A DNA stretch of 64,000 nucleotides from an uncultured Candidatus Bathyarchaeia archaeon (GTDB taxonomy: Archaea; Thermoproteota; CALKCG01; B24): contig CAZMSC010000004.1 of assembly GCA_964568845.1 (NCBI GenBank), forward strand, positions 55-64,054, in the 5' to 3' direction. Positions 1,756 through 62,108 of this stretch are shown in pieces. Numbering within the stretch: the stretch's first letter is position 1; every line of letters starts with the position of its first letter. The notes beneath the pieces are model-generated. The model made no database searches. It had not been told where the DNA came from and was given only the letters and a program-made list of their open reading frames with translations. A program made the position numbers and the translations under genes.

Positions 1756-2435
1756 TAAGGTTTTCCAAGGCTTTAGGCATTCATATTCTAACCAACACAG
1801 GTCTCTATAAGGCGCCTCATCTTCCAAAATTTGCTTTTGAATACTCAGCTGATCGGCTTGCTGAATTGTGGACAAAAGAGATTCTGGAAGGGGTTGAAGA
1901 TACCTATATTAAAGCAGGATTCATAAAGATCGCAGTAAATCCTGGTACTATAGTGCCTATACAGCAAAAAATTGTAAGGGCTGCTACCCGTTGCAGTCTT
2001 GCAACAAGAGCTGTTATTGCCTGTCATACAGGTAATGGTGTAGCGGCAATGCATTTACTTAAAATTTTGAACGAAGAAGGCTTGGAAAATAATAAATTTA
2101 TAGTTGTTCATACTGACGCTGAAGAAAACATCGAATATCATCTGGAGATCGCTAGGCAAGGTGCATGGGTCGAATATGACGGTTTAAGTCAAAATACCTC
2201 TGAGAAAACATTAAAGCTGCTCAGATTTATGGTGGATCACGGTTTTGAGGAGCAGATCCTTCTGTCTCAGGATGCAGGATGGTATAATGTAGGTCAGCCC
2301 CGCGGCGGCAACATTAGAGGTTATGAATACTTGATTGAAAAGTTTGTTCCCTCAATGAAAAAGAATGGTTTTGACCAAAATTTAATCGACAAGATTCTAG
2401 TGGAGAATTCTGCTAAAGCTTTTCAAATCGAATAA
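1737..2435 (+). pseudogene. phosphotriesterase-like lactonase/PHP family gene lacking its 5' third
   Basis: KALGIHILTNTGLY, ADRLAELWTKEILEGVEDTYIKAGFIKIA (carboxylated-Lys region), IACHTG, VVHTD, LSQDAG and VPSMKKNGF...ENSAKAF align with SsoPox/PTE family proteins from about residue 95 onward. The N-terminal HxH metal motif is absent and the frame is closed by TAG at 1734-1736. Confidence 0.6.
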
Positions 2436-21693: not shown

Positions 21694-24600
21694 CTATGAC
21701 ATGCTTCTTATACTATCTATTTCAATCTTTAGTGTCCTCATGACATCTTGATAGTTTAGTTTCCCGTTTTCTATAAGCCACATGGCTTCCTCAAGCTTCC
21801 TAGTGGTTTCTTCAGAAATGAATGGACCAAATCTATCATTCAAGTAATCGAAGACTTTTATACCCATTCTAGTAGGTATGAGAGACTTTCTATTTTTAGA
21901 GGCTAAGATATATCCCCGTTCGAAAATCGTCTCTACTATCTTAGCGTATGTTGAGGGTCTTCCTATACCCCTCTCCTTCATTAAAGCTATTATATCGCCT
22001 TGAGTGTAGAGCGGTACGCTGGGAGCCCTCCAATGTCTAACGTTAACTATCCTTACAACACCCTCTTTAACTGGAGGTATTGTTCTGATCGGTCTAACGA
22101 GGTTGAAGCCGTTTTCGATAATATTTGAATATCCTTCCACATCGGTAACTTTATTCTGAATCTTAACTTTAAAAGATGATTTTTCAACTTTAACGTGTTT
22201 CATTTGACTCGCTATAAACCTTTGGAATATAAGCTCGTATAGAGATAGATGTTTATGGGTGAGCCTTTTCGCAAACTTCATAAGCCCCAGCGTCATAAGC
22301 TCTTTGATTCTAGTGGCATCTAGACTCCTAGTCGGCCTTATACATTCATGCGCACCCTCAGCATGCCAAACTCTAGGCGCTACAAAGTCGGAGCCGAATT
22401 TACTCGTAATATAGTCCCTAGCTATCTCTATACCCACCTGCGACACTCTGTGGCTGTCAGTTCTATGGTAGGTTATCAAACCCAGTTCGAAGAGGTCCTG
22501 GGCTAAAGTCATTGTCTCAGTAGCGCCTAGACCCATATAGGTTGAGGCATCTTTAAGCATAGAGTCTGTGGTGAAGGGGGGAGGGGGATTAACCTCGACA
22601 ACTTCCGCTCTAAGGTCTGTAATTTCGGCTTGAACGTTCTTCAAATTCTCCATGTAATGTCTAAGCTCCTTTCTATGCATGCGATCTTCAGATATTACGA
22701 TTTTAAGACCGTTTTCAAGTTTTAACTCGAAAAACTCTCTTACGGAGCGCTTCGACTCGTGCATTCTACTTATAATCCATCCTAAGACTGGAGTTTGCAC
22801 TCTTCCAGCTGAAAGCCTTCTACTTCCAAAGACCTTCCAAAGCTTCTGACTCAACTCAAAACCTATCCACCTATCTTCAATCCGCCTAGTTATTTGAGCT
22901 TCTACGAGGTTCAGATCTATCTCCCTAAGGTTTTTAAATGACTCTCGAAGCGCCCTTCTAGTAACTTCATGAAATTCAGCTCGTTTAACTTCACGTGTGA
23001 ATGGTTTAATTGCTACACATAGATCCCAAGAGATCTTCTCCCCTTCAGCGTCAGCATCGGTTCCAAGTATTACTAGGTCTACTTCTTTGGCCAAACTTCT
23101 CAAACTCTCTATTACAGATCTTTTATCGTGGATATTCTCTGAGCCGCATACTGGGCATTTGACAGAGCTGCTAACAAACGTATAACTGCATTTTAAACAC
23201 CTCTTTATAGTCGAGTAGACTGGAACGTATAATCCATCGACGTCGAGAACACCATAGAGCCCAATATCCTCAATAGTCAAATCCATAATATGTCCCCCTG
23301 TTGCCGCTATTGTTAAGATGTAATCTCCAGTATTGACTTCGAAAGCCGTTAGATTCCCTATACGCCTCTTACTCGGTCTACCGAAGAGCCTAGCTATCGT
23401 TCTAGCCTTATTTGGAGACTCGACTATGAAGAGGGCTGCTTTCACTAGGTCTTTGAACTCGGCTCTGACTCTTCCATCCATGAGGTCTTTTATAGCTCTC
23501 CTATCCTCATCAACACCTTTTACAATATCGTCTAAGTTAGTTTCTGAAAGAGCACGCCAGTTTATATCTTCTATGAACCAGCGCGTTTCCCTCATCAGGC
23601 CGTTAAAAGCCTTACTATTGTCCACAAGAACGATTGACAGCCCTCTAGATATACCTCCAGCATACATCCTCGACGTTCTACCTGAAGCTTGAATATAGGC
23701 CACCGGATCGGGTACCACTAGGTAGAAAACGTCGCCCTCCCTCTCCAAGCCAATGTATGGGCTTTCCTCTAATGCTTTAAGCAATTCTTCTCTAGAAAGA
23801 ACATCGCTTAGAAACTTCAAAGCTTCCTCTATTGCTATTCTAGCCCGCTCAGGTATCAGCGGCAGAGGCTCGTCTTTAGCTACCGCTTGAGCTATATTAT
23901 CCTGTACATCTGCAGGCATTATACGGCTTACCACTCTAAGCTCATTTAGAAGCCTTAAGGCTTCTGCCTGCTCTCTCTCCGGAAGAAGCTCCATTATGTT
24001 GGCTAGTAAAATTATCGCCTTAGATATTCTAAACTTCTGTTTCACATCGAGGTCTATATGCATCTTAGGAACCCCTAGAAAGACTGCATACCTAACTCTG
24101 TACGGTAGATCTATGCCACGGACAAGGGGACTCCTATAAGAGGCAACACCTATTAAGACGTCGTAAACACCTTCTGAGAACTTTTCCAAAACCCTCTTTC
24201 TAACTCTGGTAAGGGCTTCTGCTTTAATATTCCGTTCAGTGAGGAAGTTTTTAAATTTATCAGCGTATTCTGCTCCAAGGTTCATGGGAATGTATATTAA
24301 ACCTCCCGGCCCCAGCTTCTCTATGAGCTTGTAAGCATCTTCTTCCAAGTTTTTAGATTCAATGTATAGGTCGGCGACGTTACGCCCGACATCTATCCTA
24401 GAGGATATTTCAAAGCCGAGCAGCTCTCTAAATAGTAGAACGTGTCTAGTCCTTCTAGCTCTAATGGACGCTCCGGATACGACTAAAACCCCAACCTTCT
24501 CCCTCTTAGCTTCAATCTCACCCATAAGTTTAGAAATCTCATCATAGAGCCTGTAAACTTCTGAGAAACTTCTTCTCCTAAGCTCTCTACCCAGCTCTCT

Positions 24601-25323
24601 TCTAAGGTTTATGATCGTCAAAGCATTTTCTAAATCCTCATGACCGAAGCCAAGGAGAATTAAAACCTTATCGATGTTTCTAGAAGCCCTCAACAGCGAA
24701 TCTACATCGTCTACAAATATGAAGTCAAACTTTATGTTCTCTAGGAGGTTAAACCTCATGTTTAGAAAATTTAAAGTTGTTACGAGAATGTCGTAATCTC
24801 CATTCTTTATCCTTTCAAGCTGAGAATTAGCCTCTCTACGTGTTAGAAGGGAATGGTAGTAAGCTATTCTAACGTTTAAACCGGTTCTTTCAGAATACTT
24901 TAAAATCCTCTCAGAAACCTGCTTAGCTAAGAGGGCTGTAGGAATCAATATGTAGCTTTTCTTATTTCTTTCACATGCTAGAAATAAGGCCATTATAGAT
25001 CCAAAAACAGTTTTCCCCATACCGGTTGGAGCTATAAGTGCAAAACTTTTACCTGAAAATATTCGCCTAGCCCAAACCCTCTGCGCAGCCCAAGGCTGGC
25101 TATCCGTAGCTTTTTCAAAAAAACTGGCGAATTTATCTAACTGCTTATTCATTGATATGAGTTCAATATAACTTCTACTAGGCTTAACGGGTAAAGTTTG
25201 CAGATTTGAATCGATTGTATGCTCAACTGGAAGGCATTGCCTACACAGTAAACCCGCAAATGCTCTATCATCATCGATATCGCCGTTACAATTTGGACAT
25301 AGATTTTTAAAAATCGCTCTCAT
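21694..25323 (-). CDS. rgy: reverse gyrase
   Basis: 1209 aa. N-terminal Zn finger CPNCNG...CRQC, helicase Walker A APTGMGKT and VDDVD, then a Toprim/topoisomerase IA half with an inserted Zn ribbon CLKC...CPVCG. Confidence 0.95.
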   Translation of the reverse strand: MRAIFKNLCPNCNGDIDDDRAFAGLLCRQCLPVEHTIDSNLQTLPVKPSRSYIELISMNKQLDKFASFFEKATDSQPWAAQRVWARRIFSGKSFALIAPTGMGKTVFGSIMALFLACERNKKSYILIPTALLAKQVSERILKYSERTGLNVRIAYYHSLLTRREANSQLERIKNGDYDILVTTLNFLNMRFNLLENIKFDFIFVDDVDSLLRASRNIDKVLILLGFGHEDLENALTIINLRRELGRELRRRSFSEVYRLYDEISKLMGEIEAKREKVGVLVVSGASIRARRTRHVLLFRELLGFEISSRIDVGRNVADLYIESKNLEEDAYKLIEKLGPGGLIYIPMNLGAEYADKFKNFLTERNIKAEALTRVRKRVLEKFSEGVYDVLIGVASYRSPLVRGIDLPYRVRYAVFLGVPKMHIDLDVKQKFRISKAIILLANIMELLPEREQAEALRLLNELRVVSRIMPADVQDNIAQAVAKDEPLPLIPERARIAIEEALKFLSDVLSREELLKALEESPYIGLEREGDVFYLVVPDPVAYIQASGRTSRMYAGGISRGLSIVLVDNSKAFNGLMRETRWFIEDINWRALSETNLDDIVKGVDEDRRAIKDLMDGRVRAEFKDLVKAALFIVESPNKARTIARLFGRPSKRRIGNLTAFEVNTGDYILTIAATGGHIMDLTIEDIGLYGVLDVDGLYVPVYSTIKRCLKCSYTFVSSSVKCPVCGSENIHDKRSVIESLRSLAKEVDLVILGTDADAEGEKISWDLCVAIKPFTREVKRAEFHEVTRRALRESFKNLREIDLNLVEAQITRRIEDRWIGFELSQKLWKVFGSRRLSAGRVQTPVLGWIISRMHESKRSVREFFELKLENGLKIVISEDRMHRKELRHYMENLKNVQAEITDLRAEVVEVNPPPPFTTDSMLKDASTYMGLGATETMTLAQDLFELGLITYHRTDSHRVSQVGIEIARDYITSKFGSDFVAPRVWHAEGAHECIRPTRSLDATRIKELMTLGLMKFAKRLTHKHLSLYELIFQRFIASQMKHVKVEKSSFKVKIQNKVTDVEGYSNIIENGFNLVRPIRTIPPVKEGVVRIVNVRHWRAPSVPLYTQGDIIALMKERGIGRPSTYAKIVETIFERGYILASKNRKSLIPTRMGIKVFDYLNDRFGPFISEETTRKLEEAMWLIENGKLNYQDVMRTLKIEIDSIRSMS

Positions 25324-61104: not shown

Positions 61105-61865
61105 CTATTTCCACATTCTGGGATAGGTGTTAGGCTTCATAACCACTCTTTCCGTTTTAACAGCTACACCTTTTTCTCTTTCAAGCATTTCCTCGCTTGT
61201 CATCAAAGCTTTACCTAGAGCTACGAGTTCACCTTTAAGTGTGAATAGTGCGACTAAATCATCAACCTCTATGTCGGAGTTTAGACTTACAATGCCGGGT
61301 AATGCCAAATCCGCACCATGACATACAGCGTCAACTGCCGTGTCGCGAATCCAAATCTTCGGTATCAGGGCAGTAACTTCTTCGACAGGCTGAACTATAG
61401 ACCTGAGAGGTTTCTCGTCTCCAGCCTTATATGCTTCAATGGCAACAACCAAATCCCTCAACGATGTTAAACCCCTATCTTCACTGAAGGGGCCAACTCT
61501 AGTTCTTCGAAGCTCTCTCATATGCGCCCCACAGCCTAAGACTTCACCCATATCATGTATCAGTTTTCTAATATATGTGCCCGCTTGACAACAGACCCTT
61601 AAAAGTACATGACGCTTATCGACTTCCAGCACATCTATGTAGTAGATTCTTCTAGTTCTAAGAGCCTTTTTAACAGAAGATCTTAAGGGGGGCTTCTGGT
61701 AAATATCGCCCTGAAATTCTTCAGCAACTTCTCTAACCTTATCCTCAGAGATATTGTCGTGAAGCTTCATTATACATACGTATTCTTTGCCTCCGCTCAG
61801 TAAAACTTGGAGAGTCTTCGTAGCTTCATTTAATGCTACAGGCAATACACCGGTAGCGGGGGGAT
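61105..61865 (-). CDS. cbf5: Cbf5 (H/ACA RNP pseudouridine synthase) exon 2
   Basis: After splicing the exon begins (G)AT CCC CCC GCT ACC GGT = [17 protein letters not shown]. It then continues with [30 protein letters not shown] and a PUA domain ([17 protein letters not shown]). Confidence 0.85.
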
Positions 61866-61882
61866 ATCCCCGAAGGAAAGCT
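61866..61882 (-). other. 17-nt bulge-helix-bulge mRNA intron in cbf5
   Basis: Minus strand reads GGGGGGA-CUCU-[AG|A]-GCUUUCCUUC-GGGG-[AU|A]-UCCCCCC: a 7-bp outer helix, a 4-bp central helix and two 3-nt bulges. Excision restores the Cbf5 reading frame. Confidence 0.8.
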
Positions 61883-62108
61883 CTAGAGTCCCCCCGTGAC
61901 CAGCCTTATTAGCGTTCATAATCCTCTTAACAGTGGCTGTTACATCGTGACTTGTAGGACCAGCTGGTTTATCTAAAATGATAACTCCATATTCTAGATG
62001 TTCATCTATGGTTCTCTTCCAAGGTGGTTTACCGTAGGCTTCATTCGTCTCTTCGAATGTTTTGTAAAGCACTTCTCTTTTAATTTCCCAAGGCGGTTGA
62101 AGCCTCAA
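61883..62108 (-). CDS. cbf5: Cbf5 exon 1
   Basis: [17 protein letters not shown]...NKAGHGGTL(D). TTG start in a TTGA overlap with the rpl14e stop. Confidence 0.85.

Follow-up and report, generated by a model that had tools for sequence, protein, structure and literature searches.

A probable 17-nucleotide endonuclease-type intron splits the catalytic aspartate codon of cbf5 in an uncultured Bathyarchaeia archaeon

The stretch of DNA analysed here, 64,000 nucleotides (nt) of contig CAZMSC010000004.1 from an uncultured Candidatus Bathyarchaeia archaeon, is called the window below. It carries on its minus strand, at 62108..61105, the cbf5 gene coding for the pseudouridine synthase Cbf5. As written in the genome, the gene is broken into two open reading frames (ORFs) of the ORF list, both on the minus strand, at 61836..62108 (90 amino acids, aa) and 61105..61845 (246 aa). 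The first ORF is Cbf5-like until KAGHGGTL and departs thereafter, and gene callers output the two pieces separately, as DKCLD (90 aa) and TruB/PUA (246 aa) products. When the 17 nt at 61866..61882 (AGCUUUCCUUCGGGGAU) were deleted, a single ORF of 987 nt coding for 328 aa was obtained, in which the GTLDPxxTG motif is intact. The spliced protein matched the NCBIfam model NF003280 (Cbf5) with 448.6 bits over model positions 2-319 of 323. The comparison with Cbf5 orthologues proposed by the first-pass annotation of this DNA gave an alignment free of gaps across the junction with the chains of the Pyrococcus abyssi and P. furiosus structures (2aus_C and 3lwo_A; E ~1e-120).

Exon 1 (61883..62108, minus strand) comprises 226 nt, corresponding to 75 codons and the G of the Asp-76 GAU codon, and its product is the DKCLD domain. 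Exon 2 (61105..61865, minus strand) starts with the AU of the Asp-76 codon, codes for TruB_N, TruB_C_2 and PUA, and terminates at the TAG stop codon 61107..61105. The putative intron (61866..61882, minus strand), of the bulge-helix-bulge (BHB) type, lies between the G and the AU of the codon for the catalytic Asp, residue 76, and the unspliced reading has no catalytic Asp. The break, read on the minus strand from 61895 to 61858, is GGGGGGA CUCU AGA GCUUUCCUUC GGGG AUA UCCCCCC. When the rule of a cut between the second and third nucleotides of each trinucleotide (AGA and AUA) is applied to this sequence, 61866..61882 is removed and the 328-aa Cbf5 is restored. The splice point is ambiguous by 1 nt, since CUAG/A...AU/A and CUAGA/...AUA/ (cuts marked by slashes; 61866..61882 or 61865..61881) give an identical product. 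The first-pass annotation had assigned both ORFs to one cbf5 gene with the aspartate codon split G/AU, had applied the same cutting rule to restore the frame and motif II, and had expected automated annotation to mistake the locus. Its ORF coordinates, break sequence and arithmetic were all correct on re-reading, and each of these claims stands. In our opinion cbf5 is very probably a single functional gene, and the 17 nt inside the Asp-76 GAU codon an archaeal intron of the endonuclease type; its removal restores the ORF, and inserts at the same site are found in relatives and in known hosts.

The nearest genomes are uncultured Bathyarchaeia metagenome-assembled genomes (MAGs), namely CAYWZZ01 (94% aa identity) and the hot-spring bins DRTY-6, QZM_A2 and JZ-2, and Bathyarchaeota B24. 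In six related MAGs (L001-L006; 80-94% aa identity), a tblastn frame test revealed that the reading frame breaks at the same point as in the window. The insert occupies the same nucleotide position, with a length of 16 nt in three relatives and 17 nt in the other three, and its loop varies in sequence and in length. The consensus of the window and its relatives is GGGGGGA-CYCU-AGA-(9-10 variable nt)-GGRG-ANA-UCCYCCY, and the spliced ORF counts 328 codons in all six relatives. At the second pair of the central helix, the window has U-G, L001-L005 have U-A and L006 has C-G. Compared with the six relatives, the ratio of nonsynonymous to synonymous divergence (dN/dS) was 0.04-0.10 for exon 1 and 0.04-0.09 for exon 2, dS ranging from 0.3 to saturation. 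Shared inserts, 328-codon spliced ORFs, low dN/dS and the pair changes in relatives lead us to exclude an assembly artefact and a decaying pseudogene. The artefact, in which 17 spurious bases would have been introduced by assembly or sequencing, had been raised by the first-pass annotation itself and could be favoured by the metagenome assembly source of the DNA and by the G6 and C6 homopolymers flanking the site. It is hardly credible and effectively refuted by independent assemblies: an identical 246-aa product is carried by 4-5 contigs in JGI data, where sample 3300009590 contains it, six MAGs assembled independently and from different places have diverged versions at this position, and the insert is also found in 54 of 80 metagenome loci and in finished isolate genomes.

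Covariation was analysed in an alignment of 55 distinct junction contexts from which the variable interior had been removed. Pairing in the central helix holds for 98.2% of cells (55 distinct sequences), and two of its four pairs show changes on both sides. Three of the pairs are distributed as CG 41, UA 11, UG 2 and AU 1; CG 52 and UA 2; and UG 43 and UA 12. None of 500 shuffles attained the covariation score or the percentage paired that were observed, and every slid register fell below the true one. Among 67 distinct contexts, the 5' trinucleotide is AGA in 56 and the 3' trinucleotide is NNA in every one. In the coding sequence of the exon, the Thr codon is ACY in 66 of 67 intron-bearing genes versus 33 of 92 intron-less genes, and the Leu codon is CUA in 55 of 67 versus 11 of 92. 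These counts indicate that the exon synonymous sites are constrained only where the intron is present. Intron-less Bathyarchaeia genes were observed to have relaxed Thr-Leu-Asp codons (ACA UUA GAC and similar).

The covariation also bears on the possibility of a frameshifted pseudogene, in which the insertion of 17 nt put cbf5 out of function and the resemblance to a BHB fold arose by chance. This is compatible with a gene broken into two ORFs, and loose BHB-like motifs are common by chance. However, both halves of the gene are under strong purifying selection in seven lineages, even where synonymous sites are saturated, the place of the insert is fixed to the nucleotide although its sequence and length vary, and the central helix covaries. 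Furthermore, the same arrangement exists in cultured Sulfolobales in which spliced cDNA was sequenced (PMC2738675), and Cbf5 is the product of a core archaeal gene. No second cbf5 was detected within the 64-kb window or, for the assemblies of the six relatives, among the 80 best genome matches. We consider a pseudogene very improbable.

The RNA around the interrupted Asp-76 codon can be folded as follows, all positions being on the minus strand. The outer exon-exon helix h is formed by a 5' strand at 61889..61896 (CGGGGGGA, codons CAC GGG GGG A(CU)) and a 3' strand at 61857..61864 (UCCCCCCG, codons (GA)U CCC CCC G(CU), coding for Asp-Pro-Pro-Ala). The central helix of 4 base pairs (bp) is predicted between the exon strand H, CUCU at 61885..61888 (from ACU CUA), and the intron strand H', GGGG at 61868..61871. 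The 5' splice-site trinucleotide AGA (61882..61884, predicted cut 61883/61882) stands in a loop and not in a closed bulge, whereas the AUA of the 3' splice site (61865..61867, predicted cut 61866/61865) is a 3-nt bulge in both the minimum-energy and the consensus folds. The minimum-energy fold of 61850-61905 (-27.4 kcal/mol) contains the 8-bp outer helix, the 4 bp of CUCU with GGGG and the 3-nt AUA bulge, and the helix on the intron side of the 5' splice site has at most 1 bp in the window. Six of the seven clade members show both the H helix and the 3-nt bulge in their minimum-energy folds, and L006 (B24) folds as a canonical hBHBh'. Because its 5' site is in a loop without closed 3-nt bulge, the predicted motif of the window is a relaxed hBH, or bulge-helix-loop (BHL), with a 4-bp central helix, which is an accepted relaxed form of the BHB. 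The first-pass annotation had described a textbook BHB: its outer and central helices and the AUA bulge are found in the fold, and the closed bulge at the 5' site is not.

In L001, the closest relative, the 16-nt intron (L001:3224-3245) can form a perfect 6-bp hairpin, GUCUCC-CUC-GGAGAC, which may represent another conformer, incompetent for splicing, or may only reflect a limitation of the energy model. An extension of the outer helix by 6 bp (GCYGGU with ACYGGU), proposed by RNAalifold, is not claimed, as it shows no both-sided changes and consists of conserved codons. Rfam (gathering threshold) and ARAGORN gave no match over the whole window, and no curated model covers the cbf5 intron element.

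Introns of cbf5 have been described in Desulfurococcales and Sulfolobales, with lengths of 16-44 bp and mostly unconventional BHB motifs (Watanabe et al. 2002; Yoshinari et al. 2006; Yokobori et al. 2009, PMC2738675). They have no ORF and share more sequence than pairing in the motif would require, which is true of the window intron as well. The known introns disrupt the catalytic codon and are cleaved by the tRNA-splicing endonuclease EndA at a relaxed BHB, between bulge residues 2 and 3 (PMC2738675). Splicing was seen at the RNA level in Sulfolobales and Aeropyrum, with spliced cbf5 cDNA sequenced from cultured Sulfolobales. The gain was placed in the common ancestor of Desulfurococcales and Sulfolobales, and none was found in Thermoproteales, Thaumarchaeota or Korarchaeum (PMC2738675). 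The literature named by the first-pass annotation (Watanabe et al. 2002, and gain and loss among Crenarchaeota) is right according to this source (PMC2738675). Its description of the window intron as a very short member of the class holds in that 17 nt is near the minimum, though not below it, the shortest published cbf5 introns being 16 bp in Desulfurococcus mobilis and D. mucosus (PMC2738675). Its suggestion to compare insertion sites was followed with loci fetched from Saccharolobus islandicus (23 nt), Acidianus brierleyi (19 nt, in agreement with the published 19 bp; PMC2738675) and Fervidicoccus (29 nt), and the insert lies at the same nucleotide and in the same phase in all three. These three crenarchaeal loci share ACC CUR G/A...GGGG NN/AY CCN.

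The window intron resembles that of Desulfurococcales and Sulfolobales in the gene, the Asp codon and the phase (...ACY CUR G/A...NN/AY CCN), in the central helix of CYCU with GGRG, in the 5' AGA and 3' NNA of a relaxed BHB, in a length of 17 nt inside the 16-44 bp range, and in the intron ends, 5' AG(C/G) and 3' GGRG-NN. It differs in its host, Bathyarchaeia being outside Desulfurococcales and Sulfolobales, and in the balance of its helices, since the three crenarchaeal loci have an inner stem of 4-5 bp and an outer helix of 0-4 bp, versus about 1 bp and 8 bp in the window. The same position, phase, and bulge and helix sequences argue for homology of the two, and on this comparison the window intron is a member of the known cbf5 intron family and not a new kind. 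Its Bathyarchaeia host falls outside the published taxonomic range, which is a statement of range and not a structural criterion, so that the family's range is extended and the membership unaffected. No report of cbf5 introns in Bathyarchaeia was found in full-text literature searches, and both this host lineage and the abundance of the intron appear to be unreported.

Likeness extends to the archaeal tRNA introns with relaxed BHB (hBH, HBh' or BHL), in the 4-bp central helix, the 3-nt bulge, the second site in a loop, the cut 2 nt into each trinucleotide and the predicted enzymes EndA and RtcB (PMC3241643, PMC7714728). Unlike those introns, which are served by (alpha-beta)2 or epsilon2 EndA, the window intron is in a protein-coding mRNA. 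The BHB intron of HVO_1309 in Haloferax volcanii (Schwarz et al. 2020, PMC7714728) is likewise an EndA substrate in an mRNA, but it is located in the 5' untranslated region of an unrelated gene in an unrelated lineage, and it is a canonical BHB processed by alpha2 EndA (PMC7714728).

To estimate the distribution of the intron, exon 2 was compared with databases. About 100 of the 120 best matches (55-64% identity) are fragments of 221-280 aa starting just past the catalytic Asp, for example with MTGVLPVAL. Two of them are labelled Candidatus Bathyarchaeota/-ia by NCBI, and some are named 'Cbf5' by NCBI. A metagenome scan with an alignment of exon-2-like fragments as query returned 80 loci (L092-L171), of which 54 have an insert of 16-39 nt at the Asp site, in frame in 15. 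As the tblastn frame-shift test is blind to in-frame introns such as that of L016, a motif-distance test was used instead. Among 80 species-representative genomes, the intron occurred in all six clade members and in the Bathyarchaeia genome L016 (in-frame, 18 nt). Inserts of 20-68 nt occupy the Asp site in contigs of four other fragment groups (L082, L084, L085 and L087), and L172, labelled Bathyarchaeia by NCBI, has one of 20 nt there. Overall, the homologous inserts are 16-68 nt long and occur in all three phases, and 18 of 73 intron-bearing loci have a length that is a multiple of 3 and causes no frame shift. In L016 (L016:3001-4002, Bathyarchaeia SRP338002_co1_87) and the 15 in-frame metagenome loci, the lengths are 18, 21, 27, 30, 33 and 39 nt, and such introns may be annotated as extra residues inside the active-site motif.

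These lengths bear on two readings of the locus that do without splicing. A true split gene, with the 90-aa DKCLD and 246-aa catalytic/PUA polypeptides translated apart and then assembled, would agree with the possible TTG start of each ORF and with the output of both by gene callers. Nevertheless, the catalytic Asp and the DPxxTG portion of motif II are both missing from the two ORFs; ORF 1 continues into ELSFGD..., and ORF 2 opens at a TTG within VLPVAL. From one relative to another the unspliced tail also changes in sequence and frame, since an insert of 16 nt does not shift the frame as one of 17 nt does, and the 18 multiple-of-3 inserts leave the frame unshifted. A split gene is accordingly given very little probability. 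The other reading is ribosomal recoding, by programmed frameshift or by bypass of the 17 nt with no cleavage of the RNA. A stable hairpin does span the gap, like in some bypass elements, but matching take-off and landing codons are absent, and two separated pieces would have to be joined to make the Asp codon. Inserts of 16-68 nt in all phases fit a structure-guided excision rather than a hop of fixed length, and the homologous element is spliced as RNA in Sulfolobales and Aeropyrum (PMC2738675). Recoding is considered extremely unlikely.

The intron-bearing metagenome loci are mostly nearest to Bathyarchaeia (65-85%), as judged roughly from the best matches of neighbouring genes against named loci, and L087, L092, L134 and L135 were not placed in this way. 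Intron status differs between closely related genes. L169 (26-nt insert) is 85% identical to the intron-less Bathyarchaeia gene L011, and the intron-bearing L170, L137 and L116 are 76-78% identical to the intron-less L010. Altogether, the Bathyarchaeia pairs that are 76-85% identical and differ in intron status involve L011, L145 and L010 without, and L169, L095, L100, L170, L137 and L116 with the intron. The junction in intron-less genes is exactly ...G-AY.... These close pairs and the exact junction indicate that the intron was precisely lost, or gained, many times within Bathyarchaeia, and the data are compatible with losses that were precise and recurrent, after which the constraint from the RNA structure was lifted.

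The locus L087/L088 (GCA_019057715.1, JAHLWW010000067; Logan SRR27170999) was observed to carry a canonical hBHBh' intron of 30 nt at the Asp codon, and within the named set the best matches of its neighbours (adenylate kinase-like, EMC3, cmk and others) are loci of Thorarchaeota and other Asgard archaea. Should this MAG be an Asgard archaeon, the Asp-codon intron would reach beyond Thermoproteota. A different insert was noticed in three Asgard MAGs which lack the Asp-codon intron. In these, 41-45 nt stand between VINLD and KPPGPTSHEV, in TruB motif I of cbf5 (L071:3114-3175, JBHLMG010000034; L022:1265-1330, JBHLQC010000071; L026:3114-3180, JBHLNC010000023). The insert has in-frame stops and is frame-shifting in L071. 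It can fold as CUGG-AU/A-(helix)-CCAG-AA/A, with CUGG and CCAG forming H, AUA and AAA as bulges, and a strong inner helix in which the three MAGs show compensatory changes. A cut past the second bulge nucleotide restores GAU/AAA, coding for Asp-Lys. Possibly cbf5 thus has another BHB intron site of independent origin, for which we found no report.

In the proposed maturation of the window cbf5 transcript, the end of exon 1 in the pre-mRNA (CGGGGGGA-CUCU) would pair with the beginning of exon 2 (UCCCCCCG) and with GGGG in the final portion of the intron. The resulting shape would comprise the 8-bp exon-exon helix, the AUA bulge with the 3' site, the 4-bp central helix and the AGA loop with the 5' site. 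EndA would cut past the second nucleotide of AGA and of AUA, RtcB would ligate the exons at the junction CUAG/AUCCCCCC, and the 328-aa Cbf5 would be made. Such splicing usually yields a circular intron as well. Both enzymatic steps are expected from homology with the Sulfolobus and Aeropyrum cases and, like any regulatory role, are putative in this host. EndA and RtcB are present in all archaeal genomes examined, Bathyarchaeia included (PMC12918454), and BHL motifs are cut by (alpha-beta)2 EndA by means of a Crenarchaea-specific loop (PMC3241643).

Several points weigh against the intron as proposed. The z-score of the fold of 61850-61905 is just -2.1, and the AGA of the 5' site stands at the edge of a 13-nt loop in which the program draws a marginal 3-bp stem of GAG with CUU. 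At 75 °C the central helix of the window's predicted fold slips register, and in L001 the intron-internal hairpin of GUCUCC with GGAGAC out-competes the central helix in the predicted fold. A relaxed BHL motif demands an EndA of broad specificity, and neither EndA nor RtcB was found encoded in the 64-kb window by Pfam scans of about 50 ORFs and gene-table annotations. The check for a second copy in this genome spans the same 64 kb, which leaves some room for an intact cbf5 elsewhere. We infer the splicing of cbf5 from features read directly in the sequences, namely gene structure, homology, conservation, covariation and purifying selection. Lastly, a scan for a 7-bp helix, a 4-bp helix and 3-nt bulges returned 138 motifs in the window versus about 107 in mononucleotide shuffles. 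As these counts are close to chance, structure alone was dropped as evidence, and the significance of the intron comes from the exact restoration of the ORF, the conservation and the covariation across relatives, and not from the fold.

The helices of the window's clade are distributed in an unusual manner. An inner stem (h') of at least 3 bp, directly against the central helix, is present in 57 of 67 distinct introns, and the exon-exon helix has 0-5 bp in most lineages outside this clade. The window and L001-L005 have an inner stem of 1 bp and an outer helix of 8 bp, and L006 has 3 bp and 8 bp; the inner helix is also kept in L092. The closure of the 5' bulge by h', seen in most homologues, is absent from the window intron, which is treated as a variant and not excluded, since published descriptions already allow relaxed and BHL forms. 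The codons forming the outer helix are uncommon. GGG represents 17.6% of the Gly codons and CCC 17.4% of the Pro codons of the window, so that GGG GGG together with CCC CCC would be expected at about 0.001. GGG GGG is retained in all seven clade members, and the Pro codons vary from C to U only, the pairs being kept as G-U. At the protein level, the 8-bp helix requires Pro-Ala where Lys-Val is usual after Asp-Pro, and DPPATG is found in all eight clade sequences and in none of the 159 other loci (167 loci in total). Since both exon-side strands are coding, the structure would constrain the choice of codons and, in this clade, two residues adjacent to the active site. A plausible course is that the intron shrank to a minimum and lost h', the exon side compensating at the cost of two residues near the active site. 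This variant architecture, with the intron-internal helix lost and an 8-bp exon-exon helix instead, appears to be unreported.

cbf5 stands in a gene order conserved among archaea, SecY-EMC3-L34e-cmk-L14e-cbf5. Its start codon, TTG at 62108, shares bases with the TGA that ends the upstream gene, L14e, the two reading TTGA (window 62105-62108), which suggests translational coupling in the L34e-cmk-L14e-cbf5 cluster. The window also carries a reverse gyrase gene (21694..25323, minus strand, 1209 aa; zf_Rg, DEAD/helicase, Toprim and Topoisom_bac). Reverse gyrase is the usual marker of thermophiles and hyperthermophiles, and its gene points to a host that is thermophilic or hyperthermophilic, in agreement with related MAGs coming from hot springs. 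At 1866-2435 (plus strand), an ORF of the phosphotriesterase family covers profile positions 110-298 of 298 only. The 350 nt upstream of it contain in-frame stops and no N-terminal part, and it is probably the remnant of a truncated gene.

To our knowledge, protein-coding BHB introns have been considered great rarities among Archaea, restricted to a small group. Finding the known cbf5 intron in Bathyarchaeia, and at two thirds of the metagenomic cbf5 loci sampled, alters the view of its age, retention and loss, and it is far commoner than the searched literature suggests. For annotation, the consequence is that cbf5 is called as two fragments, here and in many database entries, and that inserts of a multiple of 3 would slip past any check seeking only frameshifts. 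The natural swap between intron-side and exon-side helices would be a useful test substrate for what a broad-specificity EndA needs. The locus also offers an example of an RNA-processing signal that constrains codons, and probably residues, beside an active site.

More tentatively, the Asp-codon intron could be ancient, older than the split between Bathyarchaeia and Thermoprotei, kept at one position with many precise losses, the protein of the window's clade having been reshaped by the RNA structure. We see this as a possibility worth stating and not as the expected outcome. The many losses would fit the occurrence of intron-less genes up to 85% identical to intron-bearing ones. If this is true, the Lys-Val to Pro-Ala change beside the catalytic Asp created the exon-exon helix of 8 bp, a substitute for the intron helix that was lost. 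Long persistence and constraint on exon codons would then imply that the intron has a function, for which the coupling of Cbf5 production to EndA/RtcB activity would be a candidate.

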